Origin: Candidatus Uhrbacteria bacterium | GTDB lineage: Bacteria > Patescibacteriota > Patescibacteriia > UBA9934 > GWF2-40-263 | Direction: 5' to 3' | Assembly: GCA_026395055.1 (NCBI GenBank) | Contig: JAPLZK010000002.1 | Span: 128,154 to 192,153, forward strand | DNA length: 64,000 nucleotides | Shown here: positions 31,289 through 41,697 of the stretch, one piece after another | How the letters are laid out: every line of letters starts with the position of its first letter | Position numbering within the stretch: position 1 is the stretch's first letter | Made by a program: the position numbers and the translations under genes | The notes under the pieces: model-generated | Database searches by the model: none | What the model was told of the DNA's origin: nothing | The model's input: the letters and a program-made list of their open reading frames with translations, nothing else

Positions 31289-31296
31289 GTTCAACA

Positions 31297-31328
31297 AAAA
31301 ACCTCCCTGTGCATGTGCAGAGGGAGGC
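31297..31328 (-). terminator. Terminator for nadE (minus strand)
   Basis: Minus strand: cctccctctgcacatgcacagggagg followed by TTTTTT. Confidence 0.6.
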
Positions 31329-31334
31329 GAGAGA

Positions 31335-33323
31335 TTACAGGCTGAGCTCTTCGATCATGGCGAGGACTTCCTCGATCCAGAGCGTGAGCGTGACGTCCGC
31401 AGGCGCGCGCCAATCGCCGCGAGGGCTGAGCGAGACACTTGCAACCTTGGGGCAGTCCGGCAGGTTTTGCCGTTTGAATTGCGCGTTTGAGAACCGAGTC
31501 AGAAACGCGAGGAGCCATTTCAGAATCGTTACGCGATCATATTCGCCCGCGAACGTGAGTTCCGCGAGCCAGGCAATTTTCCGCGGTGCGTAACCGTTTC
31601 GGATCATGTGCCAGAGGAAAAAGTCATGCAGGATGTACGGACCAATGAGATCTTCGGTCAATTGTTCGATCTCACCAGCCTTCTTTGGCTTTGTGAGTTC
31701 GGGCGAGATGGGCGTAGCGAGCACATCAAGGATTGCCTTGCGGATTTCCTTGAAGAGCTCAATGTCCGCCGCATAGCGCACGAGATATTTCACGAGGGTC
31801 TTCGGGATGTCGCCATTGGGGTTGTACATCGACTGTTGATCGCCGTTGTACGTGCACCAACCTTGCGCAATCTCAGAGAGGTCCCCGGTGCCAATCACGA
31901 ACCCGAGGTCCATGAGAATGTGCGTGCGTTCACGCGCTTGGGCGTTTTCGCACTTGAGGCACGTCCAGCACGGCTCGTGTCCAATGCTTCGCAGATGCGT
32001 CGTCACATTTTTCACAATCGAGATGTCTTTCCAGGTGACACCCGTTTGCCGGATGAGCTTCAGCGCATTTTTCTTGGTGCGCTTCGATGTGCCAGCTCCT
32101 GGCATGGTCACAGCAAGGATGCCCTTGCGATCCCAACCGAGTTCATCGAACGCACGAAGAACGAAGAGAAACGCGAGGAGCGAATCGAGGCCGCCCGAGA
32201 TGCCAATGACGACATCGCGGCGACCGGTTCCTTTTTCGAAACTCATGAGCCGACGCTTGAGCGCGGTCACGACGTGAGCATAAATGTCTTCGCACCGTTC
32301 GGTGCGCTTTTTTTCATCCGACGGAACAAACGGGAGTTTGTTCAGGTTGATGCGAGGCGCGGCAGCGATTTTGTCATCGACCGACTCGATCGTACATTCG
32401 ATATGTCGAAACGTTTTCGGATCGACCATGGAGGTCTGACCGAAACTTCCGGACATGAATCGTTCGCGTTCGAGCTTCTCCACGTCCACATCCGTGATGA
32501 GGAGTTGAGGTTCGAACTGAAACGGCTTGGAGCGTATGCGCATGTGACCGTTTTCTGCGATCATCGCGTCGCCGTCAAAGATGACGTCGCCGGAAGATTC
32601 CCACGGACCAGACGAAACATACAGGTACGCGCTCATGCAGTGTGCGGCCTGTTGCGTCACGAGGTCGTAGCGATACGAGCCCTTTCCGATCTCGCTGTTT
32701 GAAGCAGAGAGATTCGTAAGAATCGTCGCGCCCGCGTTCGCTTGGTGCGAACTCGGGGGGATCGGCATCCAGAGATCTTCGCAGATCTCGGTGCCGAGGC
32801 AAAAGATGCGGCGTTTGTTCGAACCGGTTCCGACGAACACATCGATCACATGATCGGTGCCGAAGGGGACACGTTGTCCGCAGAGTTCCACTTCCGATAC
32901 GGTCGCTTCGTACCCAGGCCGAAACCATCGCCCTTCGTAGAAGTGTTTGTAGTTCGGAATGAACGTCTTTGGCGTGATGCAGAGGATTACGCCTTTGTGC
33001 ATCGTGACCGCAACGTTGAACAACTTCTGGTTCACGAGCAGCGGCATGCCGACTTGAATGATCATGTCTGCATCGGCCGTTGTTTTGAGTAGCAAGCTCA
33101 ATCCGTCGATCGCTTTCTCATGGAGAAACGGTTGCAAGAACAGATCGCCGCAGGTGTAGCCCGTGAGCGACAGTTCTGGGAATGTGAGGAGCTGAACATG
33201 TTGATACGCTGCTTCCCCGACAAGCTTCGCCATTTCAAAAACGTTCATGAGCGGATTGGTGACATGCACCATCGGCACAGCAACCGCTGTACGAACAAGT
33301 CCAAACGCATTCTTGGGTTTCAT
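31335..33323 (-). CDS. nadE: Glutamine-dependent NAD+ synthetase (CN-hydrolase plus NAD synthetase domains)
   Basis: N-terminal nitrilase/CN-hydrolase domain, C-terminal PP-loop SGGLDS, 662 aa. RBS aaggaga. Confidence 0.85.
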   Translation of the reverse strand: MKPKNAFGLVRTAVAVPMVHVTNPLMNVFEMAKLVGEAAYQHVQLLTFPELSLTGYTCGDLFLQPFLHEKAIDGLSLLLKTTADADMIIQVGMPLLVNQKLFNVAVTMHKGVILCITPKTFIPNYKHFYEGRWFRPGYEATVSEVELCGQRVPFGTDHVIDVFVGTGSNKRRIFCLGTEICEDLWMPIPPSSHQANAGATILTNLSASNSEIGKGSYRYDLVTQQAAHCMSAYLYVSSGPWESSGDVIFDGDAMIAENGHMRIRSKPFQFEPQLLITDVDVEKLERERFMSGSFGQTSMVDPKTFRHIECTIESVDDKIAAAPRINLNKLPFVPSDEKKRTERCEDIYAHVVTALKRRLMSFEKGTGRRDVVIGISGGLDSLLAFLFVLRAFDELGWDRKGILAVTMPGAGTSKRTKKNALKLIRQTGVTWKDISIVKNVTTHLRSIGHEPCWTCLKCENAQARERTHILMDLGFVIGTGDLSEIAQGWCTYNGDQQSMYNPNGDIPKTLVKYLVRYAADIELFKEIRKAILDVLATPISPELTKPKKAGEIEQLTEDLIGPYILHDFFLWHMIRNGYAPRKIAWLAELTFAGEYDRVTILKWLLAFLTRFSNAQFKRQNLPDCPKVASVSLSPRGDWRAPADVTLTLWIEEVLAMIEELSL

Positions 33324-33373
33324 AGTGTCTCCTTGTCTTCTCGGTTGTAGGGAGCAGAATCAATTCGTCTGAT

Positions 33374-33428
33374 CTTCACGCGCTGACACATGTCGGCGGG
33401 TGGAGAAAAGGGCGATGTAAACATCGCC
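33374..33428. promoter_or_regulatory. Conserved intergenic module, copy A
   Basis: Inverted repeat cttcacgcgctgaca-ca-tgtcggcgggtggag, then aaaag, then hairpin ggcgatgtaaacatcgcc. On the minus strand this reads as hairpin, CUUUUCUCC, then the inverted repeat, upstream of the nadE RBS. Confidence 0.6.
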
Positions 33429-33479
33429 AGATGTTGTAGGGACAGGTCGTGACCTGTCCGATCGAATACGATCATGGGT

Positions 33480-34427
33480 CTAGTACAGAATATCGCCGTT
33501 GTGATCCCAGTTGCGGTAACCGTGACCATCGGGCTTGTGCACGATCGACTTCATGACCGTGCCGCCGTTTGCTTCTTCACAACGCGCGAACGTAACGTTC
33601 ACGCCGTGCGACTTCTCATCGAAAATGCCACCGACCAGGAACACAGGTGTGCCCCAGGGGAGTGGATTGCCGATGCGGACACCGTGCAGTTTTTGCTCGC
33701 CAAATTCGGTGAACTCAGCTTGCAGAGGCGCGATGTCGATCCAGTTCTTTGCGTTCCAGTCCACGACTTCTTGCGTTGCGCGGCCAACCGACTCCGGCCG
33801 CCATACTTCACGAATCACCACCATCTGCACACCGAGATTGCCCAGCACTTTGATGTACTCGAGAATCCCCGCAGCATCTTTCACGCCCGACTTGTTGATG
33901 ACAAGTGATGCACGCACAAGGAGTCCGAGTTCACGACATCGTTTGATAAGATCGGCGGGCGATTTCTTGATCAACATGAGTCCACGATTCTGTTCGAAGT
34001 CGTGGCTTGCAATCGAGAGTGTGATCATGGTGAGACCATAGCTGACCAAAGTGTCGAGCAAATGCTCTTTTGGCATGCCTGCCTGAAAAAGAAATCCGTT
34101 CGTATGCATATCTACAAGCGGAAGATATTTCGCACATTCCGTCACAACGTTCACGAGGTATTCTGGCGATTCCTGACTCGGATCCGCGCGACCCGTGAGA
34201 ATTGCATGCGTCGCGCCTGTGCGCTCAGCGAACCGGAGTCCGACGCGCAGTCGGTGTAGTTCGCATGTCTTCACGTCTTTTTCGTTTTCCATTTCCGTCC
34301 CGGGTGTTGTGCGACTGATGCAGAATTTGCATCCAGCCGTGCAGCGTTCTCGTGTCGAAAGCTGAACGGAAATGCTTTGCGCGCGCATCTGTCCGGAGCC
34401 GTGGGCGATTTGCCGATGTTCTGTCAT
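33480..34427 (-). CDS. Radical SAM protein (activase-like family)
   Basis: CxxxCxxC motif (CTAGCKFC), LTGRADP (LTGGEP-like) and TNG motifs. The start is the second Met (RBS gaaggag), because the longer six-frame ORF reads through the upstream intergenic element. Confidence 0.7.
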   Translation of the reverse strand: MTEHRQIAHGSGQMRAQSISVQLSTRERCTAGCKFCISRTTPGTEMENEKDVKTCELHRLRVGLRFAERTGATHAILTGRADPSQESPEYLVNVVTECAKYLPLVDMHTNGFLFQAGMPKEHLLDTLVSYGLTMITLSIASHDFEQNRGLMLIKKSPADLIKRCRELGLLVRASLVINKSGVKDAAGILEYIKVLGNLGVQMVVIREVWRPESVGRATQEVVDWNAKNWIDIAPLQAEFTEFGEQKLHGVRIGNPLPWGTPVFLVGGIFDEKSHGVNVTFARCEEANGGTVMKSIVHKPDGHGYRNWDHNGDILY

Positions 34428-34445
34428 TTGAATGTACTCCTTCAC

Positions 34446-34501
34446 CTTCACACGTCGACGAAATTGTCGGCGGGTGGAGAAAAGAGGTGAGAGACTCACC
34501 T
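34446..34501. promoter_or_regulatory. Conserved intergenic module, copy B
   Basis: cttcacacgtcgac-gaaatt-gtcggcgggtggag, then aaaag, then hairpin aggtgagagactcacct. Confidence 0.6.
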
Positions 34502-34523
34502 GAGAGAGTTGAACGCTGGAAGA

Positions 34524-35159
34524 TTACATGCCCCCTGTATTCGGCCAGCGTGTTTTGGGCGCGGCTTTCAGACGGCGGATTTCTTCTTTCAGTCGCATGT
34601 TCTGAATGTACAAACGAAATGCGTAGACGCGCAGATCGACGCAGACGTAGGTGTCTGCAAGAAATTCTTCTTCGGACACCCAATGGCGGATGATCTCTTC
34701 GCCCTCACCTGCAAGGCCGAATGTATCGTCGTCATGACCGGAAAGTTGATCGATCGTGATCTGTGCGTAGCAAAGGTGCGTGCGTTCCGGAATGATTCCG
34801 ACCGAGAGCACCATACTCACACCATTGTTCAAAACGATGATGGATTCTTCTGGGATGGTTGCGCCGAGTTCTTCCGAACCTTCCGCGACACACAGTTGCT
34901 TTGGCGAAACGTTTCGATCGAACCGACCTGCGAATGGGGTGATGAGTTCACCGGTTGGGTTCTCATCTGTCTGCACCGCAATGTGTGGCGAGCGAATGAG
35001 AAGCACACGCTTGTTCACGACGTCGTGGAGAATTCCGGCGACCGAGTCTGTGCAACGTACGATGTACCAGGGATTGCCCGTGACGGGGTGTTCCCATTCT
35101 TCGAGTCGCAAGAATTTGTTTTCGTAAAGGACGCGAACGAATGTTGCGGGTTTGGACAT
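34524..35159 (-). CDS. NUDIX hydrolase, ADP-ribose pyrophosphatase-like
   Basis: NUDIX box AGRFDRNVSPKQLCVAEGSEELG aligns with the NudF-type GX5EX7REUXEEXGU motif. RBS aaggag. Confidence 0.6.
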   Translation of the reverse strand: MSKPATFVRVLYENKFLRLEEWEHPVTGNPWYIVRCTDSVAGILHDVVNKRVLLIRSPHIAVQTDENPTGELITPFAGRFDRNVSPKQLCVAEGSEELGATIPEESIIVLNNGVSMVLSVGIIPERTHLCYAQITIDQLSGHDDDTFGLAGEGEEIIRHWVSEEEFLADTYVCVDLRVYAFRLYIQNMRLKEEIRRLKAAPKTRWPNTGGM

Positions 35160-35177
35160 GTGAGGAACTCCTTCTGA

Positions 35178-35233
35178 TCTTCACGCGTCGATAAGATATC
35201 GGCGAGTGGAGAAAAGGCTCGAGCGTTTCGAGC
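35178..35233. promoter_or_regulatory. Conserved intergenic module, copy C
   Basis: cttcacgcgtcgata-ag-tatcggcgagtggag, then aaaag, then hairpin gctcgagcgtttcgagc. Confidence 0.6.
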
Positions 35234-35243
35234 AGGTGTTGTC

Positions 35244-36500
35244 CTAGACCTGGCACGTGACATTCACGTGTGTGTACCGATCATAGTTTGTGAGGCGCTT
35301 CACGCGCGTCACAGAGGATTTGCGTCCGGTCAGTTTCTTTCGGTTGTCCGAGAGTTTGACGGTCGCGCGTCCACAGATGTGCGTGAGCTTGCAGACAATC
35401 GAGAGGGCTTTCAGTCCACGATTGTTTTTATAGGATTGGAATCCCATGTTATTGCCGAGGTTCGTGCCCCAACCAAATGCGAGCTTGATGCGACCACGGA
35501 AGTGCGCGTTCAGTTTCACAATGAGTCGTGCATCGAGACCGTCCGAGAAGACAATCAATTTCGTTTTCGGATCGATGCCGATCGATTCGTAGTACGCGAT
35601 AACTTTCTCCCCGTACGCAAACGGGTCGCCGGAATCGTGACGTGTTCCGATCCACTTCTTTGCAAACGCTTCGAAGTGTTCAAGAAAGTAGTCAGAGCCG
35701 TACGTGTCCGAGAGTGCAATGGAAAGGATTGTGCCATAGAGGGCAAACCATTGTTCAAGGAGAAGTTCGTGCGAGTACATGTACCCGGCCGCGTCATCCT
35801 CTTTGTGGTAGATGCCTTGATACCCCATGTCCATTTCGTGGGCGATGGTGCCGATCGCATCGATACCGAGTTCGATCGCAATCCAAATGTTTGACGTGCC
35901 GGTAAACTGCGCGCCTATTTTTGCGGTGCAGGTTGCGGCAACTTCACGCTGCCATTCGTAACTCCAACGACGACGCGTGCTGAAATCGGAGACGATCGCG
36001 TCCGACTCCATCACAATCTCGATGTTCTCGATCAACTTGTCACGGCCAGAGGCGAGGACTTCTTCTTCGGTGAGACCAAGCTCTGTGCACTTCGCGCGGA
36101 AGTACAGGCGGTTGACCACGTTCATGATGAACGTTTCCCACATCGTGATTGCCGTCCACTTGCCCCGCGCATGAATGGCGAGCTTGCCCTTCACAACGCC
36201 GACATGAATATCGGAGAGCTTGTAGGATTTCAGCCACGTCAGAAATGCAGGCTGCAATTGCCGACCAAGTGTCGGATGATTCCGAAGGCGTTCGATCATC
36301 TCGTCCGTCATCGTCATCTGCTTGATGTGGTCGAGTTCTGCTTGGACTTGCTCGATCGTCATGAAGTCGAGCAGATTCACATCTGTCCGATTCTTGAACG
36401 TGAATCGTCCCCTCCGTTTGCGCTGATGGAGCCAGATGAACTGGAGCATCATCAGTTTGTACTTGTCTGTATCGAGTAAGTTTTTGACGATGTCGAACAT
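35244..36500 (-). CDS. pncB: Nicotinate phosphoribosyltransferase
   Basis: N-terminal LLDTDKYKLMMLQ motif characteristic of NAPRTase, with size (about 420 aa) consistent. Start at MFDIVKN with RBS aaggaga. Confidence 0.75.
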   Translation of the reverse strand: MFDIVKNLLDTDKYKLMMLQFIWLHQRKRRGRFTFKNRTDVNLLDFMTIEQVQAELDHIKQMTMTDEMIERLRNHPTLGRQLQPAFLTWLKSYKLSDIHVGVVKGKLAIHARGKWTAITMWETFIMNVVNRLYFRAKCTELGLTEEEVLASGRDKLIENIEIVMESDAIVSDFSTRRRWSYEWQREVAATCTAKIGAQFTGTSNIWIAIELGIDAIGTIAHEMDMGYQGIYHKEDDAAGYMYSHELLLEQWFALYGTILSIALSDTYGSDYFLEHFEAFAKKWIGTRHDSGDPFAYGEKVIAYYESIGIDPKTKLIVFSDGLDARLIVKLNAHFRGRIKLAFGWGTNLGNNMGFQSYKNNRGLKALSIVCKLTHICGRATVKLSDNRKKLTGRKSSVTRVKRLTNYDRYTHVNVTCQV

Positions 36501-36656
36501 CGTGTTCTCCTTGTGCAAAAAGGACAGACCCACGAACGTCTTTCGTTCGTGAGAGAAATGTGCCCTCGAGCGCACATGCGCTCGAGAAAACGTTTCTTGG
36601 TCTTTCGAGAAAAATATCCTCGGGGCTGAATGTTCAGCCCCGGGAAGAAGAAGGAA

Positions 36657-38045
36657 TTACAGTTCGCTGATGCGACGCTGCAAATCTGTTTCTGGAAAGA
36701 ACGCGAGTTCTGCGGTTGCGGTTGTGCTTCTGCGAATGGACATGGAGTTCAGTTCGCCGAGTGGAACGCCGTCGCAGAAACCACGCATCGGTCGCTTGTC
36801 TTTGCTCATCGCTTCGAATCGAATGTGTGTATCGATCGGAAGCGGTTCGTTTTTCCAGTGGTGGGAACATACGCAGCTTCCAACGAGTTGGAGCATCTGC
36901 GTGCCAGGAATGAGACGCGAGCCACCCATGCGGTATGCGTATCCTGTTGATCCAGCCGCAGTTGAAACGAGCATGACGTCTGACATGATGGGATCGAATT
37001 TCACTTCGCCATTCATGAGGACACGTGTCCAAATGGTTTGTCCGCTCAGGCGATCAACCCATGCGTCGTTGAACGCGAGCATGGATGCGTGTTCGCCTGT
37101 GACGGATTCTGCTTCCACGTAGAGCAGGGACTCTGTGTACGTTTTGAGTTCACGACACGCGCGGAGTTTTTCCACGATCGTCGCTTCGTCAAAGTCGTTG
37201 AGCAGAAATCCTTTTGTTCCTCGGTTGAGGCCGAAGAACGGAACGTGATCGCGCCAGAGGCGACGAATGGTGTGAAGCATGAAGCCGTCGCCGCCGATGA
37301 CGACAACGCAGTTGTGTTGTCCTGGATCTGTTTGAAACGCGGATGCGAGTTTTGCCGCAATGCTCACCGCGTTTGCGTTTTGATCATTCGCCACAATGAG
37401 TGGCTGCATGGGTTCCGCAAATTTTGCTGGTCCACGCAGAACGCGTCCTGTGAACAACTGGTGTCGTTCCATGAACGCCGCAACAGCTGGCGACACAAGA
37501 GTTTCGATTGATTGGTGCTTGAAGATCCGTTCGCGAATTTCCGAACTGGATCCACGAAGGGTTGGTTCGATGATCGTGTGGTGCGGCGGAAGATCTTCCG
37601 GCACACACTTCACTCCATAGCGCATGTGCACCATGAAATGCAACTCGTTCCAAACTTCCTGTCCACGAAACCACGTTCGATGAATTTCCGATTGACCACG
37701 CGCGCCGCCGGCAATGATGTCGGCGCCGATGACGTGGCAAATTTCGTGATTCGGATAGAGGGCACGATAACGCTGATCGATATCGTACGAACGGGTGAAC
37801 ACCGAATGCTCAAGATCCGTAAGATCAATTTCGACACGCGGAATGCGGCCGAACGCGAGATCACACAGGGCTGCGCGAAACGCGAGCGAAAGATCATTGG
37901 TCGTTTCTTTGTCCGGTCGTGGTCCACACGGAATGACGATGAGACGATCATCAGGACCGAGCCTGTTCGCAAGTTTGCGAATGATCGCTTCGTGATGTAA
38001 TCCCGGAGGGCAGAAACTTCCACCGTACAGAAAAATCGTTGGCAT
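36657..38045 (-). CDS. Bifunctional fusion: NaMN/NMN adenylyltransferase (NadD-like) plus NAD kinase (NadK)
   Basis: N-terminal GGSFCPPGLHH (cytidylyltransferase (H/T)xGH-type motif). C-terminal NAD kinase motifs GGDGFML and DVMLVSTAAGSTGYAYRMGGSRL. Start at MPTIFLYGG with RBS gaaggag. Confidence 0.7.
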   Translation of the reverse strand: MPTIFLYGGSFCPPGLHHEAIIRKLANRLGPDDRLIVIPCGPRPDKETTNDLSLAFRAALCDLAFGRIPRVEIDLTDLEHSVFTRSYDIDQRYRALYPNHEICHVIGADIIAGGARGQSEIHRTWFRGQEVWNELHFMVHMRYGVKCVPEDLPPHHTIIEPTLRGSSSEIRERIFKHQSIETLVSPAVAAFMERHQLFTGRVLRGPAKFAEPMQPLIVANDQNANAVSIAAKLASAFQTDPGQHNCVVVIGGDGFMLHTIRRLWRDHVPFFGLNRGTKGFLLNDFDEATIVEKLRACRELKTYTESLLYVEAESVTGEHASMLAFNDAWVDRLSGQTIWTRVLMNGEVKFDPIMSDVMLVSTAAGSTGYAYRMGGSRLIPGTQMLQLVGSCVCSHHWKNEPLPIDTHIRFEAMSKDKRPMRGFCDGVPLGELNSMSIRRSTTATAELAFFPETDLQRRISEL

Positions 38046-38060
38046 GGTGTACTCCTTCAG

Positions 38061-38120
38061 CTTCAGCGTCCCAGGAGTGGGGCGCTTAAGAAAAGGGCAG
38101 AGTTCGAGAACTCCGCGAGA
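38061..38120. promoter_or_regulatory. Degenerate copy D of the intergenic module
   Basis: cttcagcgtcccaggagtggggcgcttaagaaaaggg followed by hairpin gcagagttcgagaactccgc. On the minus strand this is a hairpin plus CCCUUUUCUU. Confidence 0.45.
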
Positions 38121-38133
38121 GAATGAACGAATC

Positions 38134-38904
38134 CTAGTTGCGTGCGATGAAGCCGAACGATTGCAGGGCTTGTCGCAGTTCAATCGGATCATCTTTGTTG
38201 ATGACGAACAGGTTGCCGGCGCTTGGCGTGAGCGTTCCTGCTTCGAGCTCGGCGGCAATCTCGTCCGCGGCACGACCGGATCCCTTGATCACGTACGTGG
38301 GCCAGCCGTTCTTGACCGAGCGCATGACTTCGTCGCGCGTGATTGGTCCGCCGTTCCATGCGATTACGCCGACCTGGTTGAATCCAGCATGTGCTTTCAG
38401 GTTGGACATGAGTTCGAAGGCAGCATTCAGATCGCCGTCCCAGTCGAGCTTGCCTTCTGCACCATCTTGCACAAGCAGAATGGCGTTCATGGCCGGATTC
38501 GGCGCAGTGCCGTAATCGTCGAGCGTCAGATGTGATTCGCCCGTGAGACGCAAGACGTCTGTACGCGGGGCGGAGCCGAGTGCAATGCATTCGGGATTTG
38601 ATGCCGCGATGAAACCGGGAATGTCTGTGACCATGGGGTCAAGAACAATGTCTTTGTCGAACTGACGCGTGCCACCCGACCAGATCATTCCCTTGAAGCC
38701 TTCGAGGGCCATCAGGAAAAAGCCGATCATGGCACGCTTGTCATCACTATTCATTCCTTTGCATCCGCCGCTGATGCGCAGACACACTTTCTCTCCCGCA
38801 CGCGTTGCCATGAGGGCGAACGTTGCGGGGATTTGATTGCGCTTGTCTTGCACGAGCAGGTAGGTCTTGCCGCCAGGCGCGGTCACGGTTCTTGCTGTTG
38901 TCAT
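38134..38904 (-). CDS. LOG/SLOG-like Rossmann-fold protein, paralog 1
   Basis: LOG-like glycine motifs SGGCKGM and WSGGTRQ (GGGxxG-like) and KGSGRAADE (PGGxGTxEE-like). Paralogous to the neighbouring 257-aa ORF. Confidence 0.5.
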   Translation of the reverse strand: MTTARTVTAPGGKTYLLVQDKRNQIPATFALMATRAGEKVCLRISGGCKGMNSDDKRAMIGFFLMALEGFKGMIWSGGTRQFDKDIVLDPMVTDIPGFIAASNPECIALGSAPRTDVLRLTGESHLTLDDYGTAPNPAMNAILLVQDGAEGKLDWDGDLNAAFELMSNLKAHAGFNQVGVIAWNGGPITRDEVMRSVKNGWPTYVIKGSGRAADEIAAELEAGTLTPSAGNLFVINKDDPIELRQALQSFGFIARN

Positions 38905-38931
38905 CACTGCCTTTACGAACTTCCTAATTTT

Positions 38932-39705
38932 CTACGCCTGTGATTTCACGAGACGCAGTTTCTCCGGGGGAAGGATCCCGAAAGAAATGAGATGTTGCCT
39001 GATGTCGTCAGAATCTTTTTCTGCGACACGGACGTTTGGGTGTGACTCGAGAAACGCCTTGTTGCTCGCATACACATCCGCGTTGCGACCGCTGCCCCTG
39101 ATGAGCAGAACTGGCCAACCGCGTTTTGCGGTTGCGAGGATCTCGCGTTCCGTCACACCACCGCCGTTGTAGACGATGAGCAGTGATTTGAAATCGGCGA
39201 ACTCACGCAGGTCTTTTATGATCTGCAGACATTCTTCGAACTCCGCGTCCCAAATGGCCGGCTGATCCGGCGACACTTGAACCAGCAGACACATATCTTG
39301 GTTTGGATGAATGATCGTACGGTAGGTATCGACGTCACTCTCCGAAACCACGAGTCCGTGTTCCGTGATCTTGATGTCAGAAGTTCTTGGAACGACTCCA
39401 AGGGAAACCATGTTCGGACAGACCTCGCGTATGTGCGACGGAATCTCAGTGATCCCGGGCACAATGTTCGACGCATCTTGTTTCTCGATCATGCGCGTGC
39501 CACCAAAGAGCATGGCGCCCGCAAATCCAGAGAACGCTTCTGCGAAGAGTGAAAGAAAATCTCGCGCATCTTCCGCAGACATGTATCCGCACCCGCCCGT
39601 GAGCCGTACAACAACTCGATTGCGAGCAGTCGTGAGTTTGAGGGCGATCTTTACCGACTGGTCTCCTTCGTTCTTCACGAATAAGGAGGGAATGATGGTA
39701 GACAT
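38932..39705 (-). CDS. LOG/SLOG-like Rossmann-fold protein, paralog 2
   Basis: Same architecture and length as paralog 1 (RLTGGCGYM, FGGTRM, RGSGRNAD). RBS aaggaga. Confidence 0.5.
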   Translation of the reverse strand: MSTIIPSLFVKNEGDQSVKIALKLTTARNRVVVRLTGGCGYMSAEDARDFLSLFAEAFSGFAGAMLFGGTRMIEKQDASNIVPGITEIPSHIREVCPNMVSLGVVPRTSDIKITEHGLVVSESDVDTYRTIIHPNQDMCLLVQVSPDQPAIWDAEFEECLQIIKDLREFADFKSLLIVYNGGGVTEREILATAKRGWPVLLIRGSGRNADVYASNKAFLESHPNVRVAEKDSDDIRQHLISFGILPPEKLRLVKSQA

Positions 39706-39726
39706 CGTGTCTCCTTGTGGTGTGAG

Positions 39727-39800
39727 CCTTCGATTTCAGAACCTCATTGTTGGGGTGCTGAAGAAAAGGGCTCTACATTTCGTTTTGCTGATTTGTATGT
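39727..39800. promoter_or_regulatory. Degenerate copy E of the intergenic module, also the pncA terminator region
   Basis: cttcgatttcagaacctcattgttggggtgctgaagaaaaggg followed by hairpin gctctacat...atggagagc. Confidence 0.45.
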
Positions 39801-39843
39801 GCAAGGTGAAATGGAGAGCGGGGGAGAGAAAGAGCGAATTGCC

Positions 39844-40602
39844 TTAGGTGTGGATCTGATCCGAGTTGATGCACTTCACGCCGCGAGCGATGAGGCGCGC
39901 TTCCATGAAGGCAATCGAGCCGGGGTAGTCGCCATCCGGAGGCAAACCAACGGAGCGCGTGCAGTCGCGGACGATGTAGGACTCGAAGCCTTCGAGTGCC
40001 GCGTCTTCGGCTGTGAAGCCAACGCAGAAGTCGAACGCGAGACCGACGATGAACACGCGCTTGATGCCGCGTTCCTTCAGGATGCGACCAAGACCAGTCG
40101 GCATCCAAAGCGTGTCGCGAAACGCGCTGTAGCTGTCGACGCGCGGATCCGTTCCCTTCGGGAAGTGCAGAATGAACGCGTCGTCGAGATCGCGCAGGCC
40201 GTCGAAGAGACGAATCTCGTTTGTGGTCATATCGGCATGTTCGTCCCAGAGGAGCGTTTCATGCCGATTGAGGCGCATGAGGTAGGCGATCAAATCTTCG
40301 CGGGTGAAGAGTGCATGCTTCGCAATCTTGACCTTGTTTTGCAGAACTTCCGTGATGGTGAGCGGACCGCGGGCCCGTTTCACGTAGGAGGTTCGGTAGT
40401 TGATGTGACCCCTCGGGTGCGCATCGAAGACGTTGAAACGTTGGCGGCGCTTGAACTTCAGAACGAGTTCCCGGAGGACCCCGATGATATCAAGCGCGCC
40501 AGGCACCGGCAGTCCACCATCTGGACCAAATGCATTTGTCGCATCAACGACGATGACCGCATCGCCTTTGCCGATCTTGATCAAACCTTCGAAATTCAGC
40601 AT
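39844..40602 (-). CDS. pncA: Nicotinamidase/pyrazinamidase (isochorismatase family)
   Basis: Isochorismatase-fold motifs VVDATNAF, FDAHP.GH and the catalytic Cys context GLAFDFCV. Confidence 0.7.
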   Translation of the reverse strand: MLNFEGLIKIGKGDAVIVVDATNAFGPDGGLPVPGALDIIGVLRELVLKFKRRQRFNVFDAHPRGHINYRTSYVKRARGPLTITEVLQNKVKIAKHALFTREDLIAYLMRLNRHETLLWDEHADMTTNEIRLFDGLRDLDDAFILHFPKGTDPRVDSYSAFRDTLWMPTGLGRILKERGIKRVFIVGLAFDFCVGFTAEDAALEGFESYIVRDCTRSVGLPPDGDYPGSIAFMEARLIARGVKCINSDQIHT

Positions 40603-40817: not shown

Positions 40818-40844
40818 AAGTAAGTGTAGACTATACACTTACTT
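40818..40844. promoter_or_regulatory. Perfect 11-bp-arm inverted repeat, candidate operator
   Basis: AAGTAAGTGTA-gacta-TACACTTACTT between the nrtR 3' end and the pncA upstream region. Shares the GTGTA...TACAC core with the palindrome at 41582-41596. Confidence 0.45.
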
Positions 40845-40854
40845 ATGTCAAGAC

Positions 40855-40908: not shown

Positions 40909-41574
40909 TTACATAATTTCCACGTATTCCAGCTTTCGGTGCTTGAACTTATAGAGCTCAGCGGGGCGGTTGGCTTCGCCGCCACGTTTCTTTCCAACAG
41001 GAACGATGAGATCCAGAGCCAAAATGCGCTTGCGGAAGTTGCGTTTATCTACGGTTGTATCAAGAATAATCTCGTAAACACGCTGTAAATCTGTGAGAGT
41101 GAATTCGTCAGGGAGCAAGCTCCAGGCGATGTTTGTGTATTGTAATCGGCTTTTGAGGCGCGTAATGGCTTCCTTGGCAATGATTTTGTGATCATAAGCC
41201 AATTCGGGAAGTTTTTTTACGGGCCACCATTTCACGTCCGCATACTTGTCTGACGTTTTGAGCTGAACGGTGTCAGAGATGAGGGCGAATGACGCAACGG
41301 AAATGACACGTTCTAATTGATCGCGATCAATTGCATCAAATGTTTTCAGTTGTTCAAGGTAGATATTTGAAACTCCTGTCTGTTCTTTTAAAATGCGAAT
41401 GGCGGTCTGTTCTGTGGTTTCTGCGTCCTCAACACGTCCGCCAGGGAAGGCCCAAAGTCCTGTGTAAGGTTTCTTTTTCATTTGGATGAGAAGTGCACAA
41501 AGTTGGTCATCTTTTACGGTAAAGATGACGGTATCAACCGCAACGACGATAGATTGTTTTGTGGATGGGGACAT
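40909..41574 (-). CDS. nrtR: NrtR-family transcriptional regulator (NUDIX-like domain plus C-terminal winged-helix)
   Basis: N-terminal NUDIX box (GGRVEDAETTEQTAIRILKEQTGV) and a C-terminal about 90-aa wHTH-like region. This architecture is diagnostic of NrtR regulators of NAD metabolism. Confidence 0.65.
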   Translation of the reverse strand: MSPSTKQSIVVAVDTVIFTVKDDQLCALLIQMKKKPYTGLWAFPGGRVEDAETTEQTAIRILKEQTGVSNIYLEQLKTFDAIDRDQLERVISVASFALISDTVQLKTSDKYADVKWWPVKKLPELAYDHKIIAKEAITRLKSRLQYTNIAWSLLPDEFTLTDLQRVYEIILDTTVDKRNFRKRILALDLIVPVGKKRGGEANRPAELYKFKHRKLEYVEIM

Positions 41575-41581
41575 AAGTGTT

Positions 41582-41596
41582 TGTGTAAATTACACA
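41582..41596. promoter_or_regulatory. 7-1-7 palindrome immediately upstream of the nrtR start, candidate autoregulatory operator
   Basis: TGTGTAA-a-TTACACA located 8-22 nt upstream of the nrtR ATG. Confidence 0.45.
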
Positions 41597-41697
41597 CAAA
41601 GTATCAGAGAATGAACGCTTCGTCAAGTTTACCTGCCGGCAGGTAGGTGGAAAAAAGCGCGCCTGAGACGTATACTGTGCGCACTAACTGAAATTGT

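Follow-up and report, generated by a model that had tools for sequence, protein, structure and literature searches.

The DNA analyzed here, a 64-kb stretch that we call the window, is a chromosomal piece of Candidatus Uhrbacteria (Patescibacteria), whose closest homologues, at 84-87% identity, come from Uhrbacteria metagenome-assembled genomes. At ~31.3-41.6 kb its minus strand carries nine genes: nrtR, a pncA-like gene, two SLOG genes (a and b), a nadD-nadK fusion, pncB, a Nudix hydrolase gene (nudix), nadE and, between the last two, the gene for a protein that we term rSAM. The CX3CX2C motif and TIM-barrel-type core fold of this protein show it to be a bona fide enzyme of the radical S-adenosylmethionine (SAM) superfamily. 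In bacteria, in probable archaea and in viruses its gene stays linked to genes of the Preiss-Handler pathway and to those for NAD kinase, Nudix proteins and NrtR, even though gene order is shuffled and the clades have only 25-34% identity to the window protein. What is new is this NAD pathway context of a radical-SAM superfamily member; we know of no radical-SAM step in canonical NAD biosynthesis, salvage or repair. In the literature searched, no paper connects radical-SAM enzymes with an NrtR regulon, with NAD salvage in the candidate phyla radiation (CPR) or DPANN, or with phage NAD pathways, and within it the association appears to be undescribed. The locus, from the nrtR end, is composed as follows:

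40909-41574, minus strand: nrtR, Nudix-related ADP-ribose-responsive repressor with a Nudix domain and the NrtR winged helix (PF21906, 88 bits)
39844-40602, minus strand: pncA-like nicotinamidase of the isochorismatase family, first gene of the operon (Pfam and NCBIfam)
38932-39705, minus strand: SLOG/LSDAT_prok protein a, a paralogue of b (PF18171, 33 bits)
38134-38907, minus strand: SLOG/LSDAT_prok protein b, predicted to be nucleotide-binding or of the N-glycosidase type (PF18171, 38 bits)
36657-38045, minus strand: nadD-nadK fusion, nicotinate mononucleotide adenylyltransferase plus NAD kinase (Pfam and NCBIfam)
35244-36500, minus strand: pncB, nicotinate phosphoribosyltransferase, starting at the ATG after AAGGAG (TIGR01514, 310 bits, above 269.55)
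34524-35159, minus strand: nudix, Nudix hydrolase, weakly similar to YffH/AdpP (ADP-ribose/NDP-sugar pyrophosphatase type; TIGR00052, 24.8 bits)
33480-34427, minus strand: rSAM gene, 315 residues, with CX3CX2C, TG(K/R)ADP in place of GGE, and the C-terminal motif KSIVHKPDGHGYRNW
31335-33323, minus strand: nadE, glutamine-dependent NAD synthetase (CN_hydrolase and NAD_synthase domains), last gene of the operon (NF002730, 724 bits, cutoff 473)
31296-31322, minus strand: terminator-like hairpin with a T-run after nadE, marking the operon end (sequence scan)

The rSAM open reading frame of 315 codons runs from an ATG at 34427 to a TAG at 33480 on the minus strand, with a Shine-Dalgarno (SD) sequence, GAAGGAG, ~8 nt 5' of the ATG. 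A longer version beginning at the GTG at 34499 is disfavoured, since the N-termini of the homologues fit the ATG at 34427. The initial annotation of this DNA had described a radical-SAM protein of about this size, with the motifs CTAGCKFC, LTGRADP and TNG, lying between nadE and a NUDIX gene: the reading frame and all three motifs are present and the gene calls agree with that placement. The cluster motif is C29-T-A-G-C33-K-F-C36, and L77-TGRADP-83 and T109-N-G lie downstream of it. C29, C33 and C36 are invariant in an alignment of 33 close homologues and in 17 distant ones. The Pfam radical-SAM model PF04055 gives the window protein 28.3 bits (gathering score 29.5) and its relatives 32-50 bits, and most of the 160 homologue clusters have precomputed PF04055 matches.

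Beyond the cluster motif, the residues K34, T78, D106, H108, N110, R172, R206, W209, W224, K293, Y304 and W307 are, together with the three cluster cysteines, invariant across clades. C283 is near-invariant and is the sole conserved cysteine outside the cluster motif. All NAD-linked clades have in common a basic set (K34, R172, R206, K293), an aromatic set (Y191, W209, W224, Y304, W307), the D106/H108/N110 trio and C283. These conserved residues would fit a pocket for a pyrophosphate-bearing nucleotide, with the cysteine taking part in the chemistry. The Paceibacteria-type rSAM proteins have an insert with three extra cysteines beside the conserved one (C-x2-C-x8-C-x4-C in P0134); this insert, perhaps an auxiliary metal site, is not present in the window protein.

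An AlphaFold2 model built on the 33 homologues has a mean predicted local distance difference test score (pLDDT) of 89.8 and a predicted template-modelling score (pTM) of 0.88. A Foldseek search with it against the PDB gave 130 matches at E<=1e-3, and all 50 of the 50 listed are radical-SAM enzymes. MoaA ranks at the top, with a TM-score of 0.65-0.67 over 313-320 columns, followed by SkfB, the viperins (TM-score 0.5-0.66), HydE and BlsE. Sequence searches converge on the same neighbours once a profile is used: a single-sequence search of the PDB returns PqqE alone (E=0.08), whereas the only clear matches of the family profile are MoaA (E=9e-6) and viperin (E=7e-3). In the profile alignment TG(K/R)ADP falls at the MoaA 'TGGEP', in place of the GGE SAM motif, and 'DMHTNG' lies opposite the MoaA 'GLTTNG'. 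R172 occupies the position of the lysine in the MoaA 'KVNVVI' and the viperin 'KINSVI', which in published structures contacts the phosphates of the nucleoside triphosphate (NTP). The family motif 'REVWxP' probably resembles the MoaA 'RFIEFM', containing R192, and the C-terminal 'C...DGxxY' region would resemble the MoaA auxiliary-cluster region. Searches of Pfam, NCBIfam, PHROGs and PADLOC placed the window protein in no family above cutoff, the best NCBIfam scores being far below it (WgkB, 23 of 650 bits; MoaA TIGR02666, 21.3 of 284 bits). The rSAM protein is a member of none of the characterised families; structurally nearest to it are MoaA and viperin, both of which bind nucleotides.

The genomic association was surveyed over 54 loci (designated by L-numbers), each non-redundant and with 2.5 kb or more of flanking DNA, a locus being counted as NAD-linked if the fetched DNA contained at least one NAD gene. 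This was the case for 47 of the 54, so that the co-occurrence check proposed by the initial annotation, for nadE and NUDIX, has a positive outcome. The loci span ABY1-type and Paceibacteria-type Patescibacteria, a probable DPANN archaeon and contigs classed as viral. By partner, phosphoribosyltransferases (PRTases) occur in 33 loci, NadE in 31, NadD/K in 31, PncA in 22, Nudix proteins in 22 and NrtR in 20. Clustered at 90% identity, the close family falls into 160 groups, and every one with a named source comes from Patescibacteria (Uhr-, Komeili-, Buchanan-, Falkow- and 'Parcubacteria'); its gene is embedded among NAD genes in 24 of 24 GTDB species-level loci and in three others. The recurring partners, in shuffled order, are PncB, NadD/NadK, NadE, NrtR, PncA, Prs, Nudix proteins, ADP-ribosylglycohydrolases (ARH), XopQ-like nucleoside hydrolases and a fusion of a deoxyribosyltransferase-like domain to Nudix. 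In L017, L023 and L026 the rSAM gene is divergent from nrtR. The nudix gene lies immediately 5' of the rSAM gene in the window, and this adjacency recurs in other loci. Elsewhere a His_Phos_1 phosphatase (CobC-like, 39-56 bits, under cutoff) is directly 5' of the rSAM gene, overlapping it by 4 nt in L001. This phosphatase, nearest to the alpha-ribazole phosphatase CobC, is found in L001 (9174-10004), L002 (9180-9986), L012 (9177-9995) and ~8 other loci, and in the window nudix takes its position.

An exhaustive profile hidden Markov model search over 1.84 billion representative sequences gave 1480 matches at E<=1e-3, 38 of them at E<=1e-30. These include a wider family of ~285-300 residues with the same C-terminal motifs; longer proteins with aminotransferase domains match the radical-SAM core only and were not counted as family. 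Among the more distant members, a Paceibacteria-type clade (30-32% identity) has the arrangement NrtR, NadB NadA, NadE-rSAM-NadK-Nudix-NadD-PRTase-PncA. Its NadB and NadA are encoded in L035 (4951-15007) and L036 (1-15014), where no NadC/QRPTase_C was recognised in the cluster, only a PRTase like nicotinate phosphoribosyltransferase (NAPRTase). Another clade has NrtR-rSAM-PRTase-PncA-NadE-Nudix-ARH-NadD, an arrangement repeated in L065 and L066; it is probably archaeal (DPANN), because its contig also has genes for a TFIIB-type zinc-ribbon protein, Kae1 and a Bud32-like protein. A third group is found on contigs classed as viral: a 416-kb IMG/VR contig encodes Nudix and, further on, NadE-rSAM (with overlapping stop and start codons), a GIY-YIG homing endonuclease and NAPRTase; contigs of 173-241 kb have a PRTase-rSAM pair; and in a 735-kb phage genome a Nudix gene is directly 5' of an rSAM homologue with 24% identity. 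These viral-classed NAD loci, on contigs of 173-735 kb, are located at L068/L083 4441-10801, L081/L082 6112-8873 and L034 9311-10888. The core set common to all clades is NrtR, PncA, PRTase, NadD, NadK, NadE, Nudix and rSAM, and every member of it but rSAM has a textbook role.

Predicted control signals set the rSAM gene within the operon of the window. Two predicted operators lie at the nrtR end of the gene cluster:

40818-40851, minus strand: promoter-like TTGACA-17-TACACT and, overlapping it, the palindrome AAGTAAGTGTA-N5-TACACTTACTT, predicted as the NrtR operator for the genes from pncA to nadE
41580-41600, minus strand: second predicted NrtR operator (TTTGTGTGTAATTTACACAAAC), directly 5' of the nrtR start

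The palindrome core GTGTA-N(1-7)-TACAC occurs twice in the window, both times at the NAD locus, and AGTGTA-N5-TACACT recurs beside nrtR/NAD clusters in eight loci (L004, L006, L017, L018, L023, L027, L035 and L036). In the distant Patescibacteria it lies at ~4910 in L035 and ~8787 in L036, overlapping promoter-like sites. We predict AGTGTA-N5-TACACT, from its recurrence and position, to be a candidate NrtR operator for Patescibacteria. Terminator-like hairpins with T-runs follow both nrtR and nadE. Together with the promoter-like site at pncA, they delimit a predicted transcription unit of eight genes under NrtR control, of which the rSAM gene is the seventh. It is a core and probably co-transcribed and NrtR-controlled component of the NAD(P) salvage operon.

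The initial annotation had also remarked that the rSAM gene has the same upstream module as its neighbours. This holds: the 17-mer TTCTCCACCCGCCGACA is present in three copies against 0.15 expected by chance, exact 5' of nadE and rSAM and with two mismatches 5' of nudix, within a larger module located as follows:

34428-34501, minus strand: module 5' of the rSAM gene, comprising hairpin 1, CUUUUCU, CCAC, hairpin 2 and GUGAAGGUGAAGGAG (SD)
33370-33428, minus strand: module 5' of nadE
35160-35233, minus strand: module 5' of nudix
38046-38116, minus strand: degenerate copy 5' of nadD-nadK
39706-39790, minus strand: degenerate copy 5' of the gene for SLOG protein a

The general layout is a GC-rich hairpin, CUUUUCU, CCAC, a second hairpin, GUGAAGG..GGAG (a purine-rich SD) and AUG, and a terminator scan flags hairpin 1 and CUUUUCU as a pair. 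The module is confined to the NAD operon within the window, and copies are found at intergenic junctions of related NAD clusters (L004, L006-L008, L011, L012, L015, L019, L021, L022 and L025). Over 17 copies the pairing of hairpin 2 is kept by compensatory changes, so observed at 8 of 9 pairs. By this covariation the module is an RNA-level element, and its role, specific to NAD genes, could be that of an attenuator, of a processing site or of an element acting in translation. A known riboswitch is rejected: Rfam returned nothing at E<=1 for the module except noise. So is an NrtR operator, as the stem covaries in the manner of RNA and the separate palindrome fits the operator role better.

Several features of the operon vary among its relatives. 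Tandem SLOG (LSDAT_prok) paralogues inside the NAD operon are seen in the Uhrbacteria-type clusters only (the window, L004, L006 and L039); these proteins may be nucleotide N-glycosidases or binders of ADP-ribose or nicotinamide mononucleotide. Lineages without the pair carry instead XopQ-like nucleoside hydrolases, ADP-ribosylglycohydrolases or the deoxyribosyltransferase-like-Nudix fusion. The nadD-nadK fusion is present in many related clusters, and others have separate NadD and NadK genes. The G+C fraction of the NAD operon (window positions 32001-40000) is 0.53-0.55 as against 0.43-0.50 in the flanks and ~0.43-0.45 in the ribosomal-protein region, which is compatible with lateral acquisition.

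The neighbourhood linkage is retained and every other member of the core set is accounted for by a textbook role; therefore, we favour a model in which rSAM catalyses a radical step on an NAD-pathway nucleotide. In general terms, it would be a nucleotide-directed radical enzyme performing an undescribed NAD(P) recycling or repair step, a proposal that we regard as evenly poised between right and wrong. In such a mechanism the reduced [4Fe-4S] cluster would cleave SAM to yield a 5'-deoxyadenosyl radical, which would attack an NAD-pathway nucleotide with a pyrophosphate group, removing hydrogen either at the ribose or at the (dihydro)pyridine ring: the candidates are NAD(P)(H), nicotinate adenine dinucleotide, and ADP-ribose or one of its derivatives. 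K34, R172, R206 and K293 would hold this substrate, stacked on W209, W224, W307 and Y304. C283 would be a putative hydrogen-atom donor or relay, by analogy to spore photoproduct lyase and the radical-SAM epimerases. The net effect would be to bring an unusable NAD-derived nucleotide, for instance a dinucleotide after damage or isomerisation or an ADP-ribose bearing a modification, back into the Preiss-Handler loop together with the adjacent Nudix protein or phosphatase and NadE.

The possible reactions include dehydration of NAD(P)HX in the manner of viperin, oxidation of 1,2- or 1,6-dihydro-NAD, correction of the alpha to the beta anomer and conversion of a modified ADP-ribose; any single one of these is, at best, unlikely. 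More tentatively, we suggest that NAD(P) homeostasis in ultra-small symbiotic prokaryotes (Patescibacteria and probable DPANN archaea) and in some jumbo phages may include a new radical-SAM reaction. It would either repair or epimerise, without need of oxygen, a pyridine dinucleotide that is damaged or isomerised (NAD(P)HX, the alpha-anomer, or the 1,2- or 1,6-dihydro form) or convert, by radical chemistry, a breakdown product of the ADP-ribose type, in each case with C283 as the hydrogen donor. The initial annotation had likewise surmised that the enzyme modifies a pyridine nucleotide or ADP-ribose derivative. The NAD association and the MoaA/viperin-like fold fit this part of its proposal, and the mechanism goes beyond what association supports.

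Several considerations weigh against the favoured model. The substrate class is deduced solely from the fold neighbours and the conserved residues. To our knowledge nearly all organisms studied so far carry out NAD salvage with no enzyme of this kind, so the role of rSAM may be accessory. The stoichiometric cost in SAM is high for routine repair. Seven of the 54 loci (L029, L033, L037, L056, L057, L070 and L073) have no NAD gene nearby, L037 being from a 7.6-Mb genome. An RNA ligase gene is directly 5' of an rSAM relative in L031 and L032 (too short for the count), and some relatives are found in generic phage contexts, so the wider family may be without a single function. As to these relatives, the stop of the RNA ligase gene (PF09414) is overlapped by the gene for a ~290-residue relative (L031 56-1827; L032 447-2218), and on the phage-like contig L029 (1369-8876) a ~290-residue relative is accompanied by RtcB, a metallophosphatase and a MoxR-type AAA protein, which hints at an RNA-repair-linked branch of the wider family.

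Four other explanations have to be weighed. The resemblance to viperins raises the alternative of a viperin-like dehydratase. From NAD, ATP or another NTP it would make a 3'-deoxy-3',4'-didehydro product or a similar analogue, with a function in signalling, in regulation or as a weapon and not in salvage. In its favour, the structural search puts viperins among the nearest neighbours, and they are the second-best PDB sequence match; PADLOC pVip models give the wider ~290-residue relatives weak matches (43 bits at most), and family members occur on phage-like contigs. The window protein, however, matches neither the viperin model NF038283 nor any PADLOC pVip model, and rSAM genes sit in housekeeping NAD operons of minimal genomes and not in defence islands. 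Furthermore, viperins need no conserved active-site cysteine, while C283 is near-invariant in the rSAM family. We therefore consider a viperin-like role distinctly unlikely.

An equally improbable function is that of a maturase or activase which modifies or activates a protein of the operon, for example NadE as the most constant neighbour, or a small peptide. The adjacency of rSAM and NadE is indeed the most conserved link, at times with overlapping stop and start codons, and the weak NCBIfam matches include peptide maturases such as WgkB (23 bits). On the other side, the homologue alignments reveal no Cys-rich SPASM/twitch domain and only one conserved extra cysteine. No gene for an NrdD- or PFL-like glycyl-radical enzyme was called in any neighbourhood examined, nor did these neighbourhoods have a conserved small open reading frame or peptide gene. 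The NCBIfam models for NrdG and the pyruvate formate-lyase activating enzyme (PFL-AE) do not match the window protein at E<0.01. Two specific types were accordingly rejected: an NrdG/PFL-AE-type activase, there being no activase match and no glycyl-radical partner, and a maturase of ribosomally synthesized and post-translationally modified peptides, as neither a SPASM domain nor a conserved peptide gene is present. A small-molecule nucleotide pocket also suits the conserved basic and aromatic residues better. The suggestion in the initial annotation that rSAM activates a partner enzyme therefore finds no support in the neighbourhoods, and the case that it named as contrary to an NAD role, orthology to NrdG or PFL-AE with an unconserved neighbourhood, is excluded: no activase model matches and the NAD neighbourhood is kept across divergent lineages.

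We think it very unlikely that rSAM supplies the pyridine base, making nicotinate or another PRTase substrate from a different precursor, for instance by radical decarboxylation of quinolinate or another pyridine carboxylate, and so replacing NadC or feeding PncB. The Paceibacteria-type clusters, with NadB, NadA and an NAPRTase-like PRTase and no NadC/QRPTase_C recognised beside them, would suit such a role, as would the PRTase-rSAM pairs on viral-classed contigs and the presence of the decarboxylase BlsE among the Foldseek matches. But most clusters, that of the window included, have no NadA or NadB, and in the genomes carrying both, NadC could lie elsewhere; moreover, the closest fold neighbours bind nucleotides and not free bases, and four conserved basic residues suggest a polyphosphate ligand. 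Least probable of all is an unrelated housekeeping radical-SAM enzyme, for example in RNA/tRNA modification or repair, that merely travels with NAD genes: some relatives do lie beside RNA ligase or near RtcB and seven loci are free of NAD genes, but the linkage outlives extensive reordering between highly divergent members and across domain and virus boundaries, and in many cases the gene either directly follows nrtR and its operator or is divergent from them.

Under the favoured model of a radical step on an NAD nucleotide, the linkage to pncA, pncB, nadD, nadE, nadK and Nudix genes across deep minimal-genome lineages and phage modules implies a missing piece of NAD biochemistry. Once identified, the substrate would establish a new enzyme function. 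It could also explain how NAD is repaired or recycled in strict anaerobes with no recourse to oxygen- or ATP-dependent repair enzymes, and metabolic modelling of CPR and DPANN organisms would gain by it. The struggle between phage and host over NAD+ may acquire a further component as well. The question is directly testable, given that the rSAM family is small and confidently modelled and has an obvious list of candidate substrates.

Comparison with known systems places rSAM at the meeting point of two groups. The first is formed by its fold neighbours. MoaA, the best structural and the best PDB sequence match, is close to it in size (~320-340 residues) and likewise has an N-terminal CX3CX2C, a 'TNG' and a basic residue at the NTP-phosphate position. 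It differs in its three auxiliary-cluster cysteines, in place of which rSAM has C283 only, and in its GGE, which is TG(K/R)ADP in rSAM; no moa genes are nearby, and the context is NAD rather than molybdenum cofactor. The viperins and pVips are, like rSAM, single-cluster radical-SAM enzymes of similar size with which it probably has nucleotide binding in common, and rSAM, too, has relatives in phages. Unlike them it has a conserved extra cysteine, a different C-terminal domain and a place in an NAD-salvage operon as opposed to a defence context.

The second group is formed by the NAD gene systems. NrtR-regulated NAD salvage operons have in common with the rSAM clusters the regulator family PF21906, palindromic operators and the genes pncA, pncB, nadD, nadE, nadK, prs and that for a Nudix ADP-ribose pyrophosphatase. 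In the clusters described here rSAM is a constant member, along with SLOG, His_Phos_1, ARH and XopQ-like hydrolases; we know of no described NrtR regulon with a radical-SAM gene, and none came up in the literature searched either. Among phages, the NARP systems offer a parallel: ADP-ribose is recycled by NARP1, nicotinamide is turned into NAD+ by NARP2 with nicotinamide mononucleotide as the intermediate, and NARP3, the newest phage NAD pathway, consists of PnuC and NadR (PMC13464706). Like NadE-rSAM-NAPRTase and Nudix on the viral-classed contigs, these are portable modules for rebuilding NAD on phage genomes, but as described there none of the three includes a radical-SAM enzyme or NadE (PMC13464706). 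The viral-classed NadE/NAPRTase/rSAM loci may constitute a Preiss-Handler-type phage NAD module distinct from NARP1-3.

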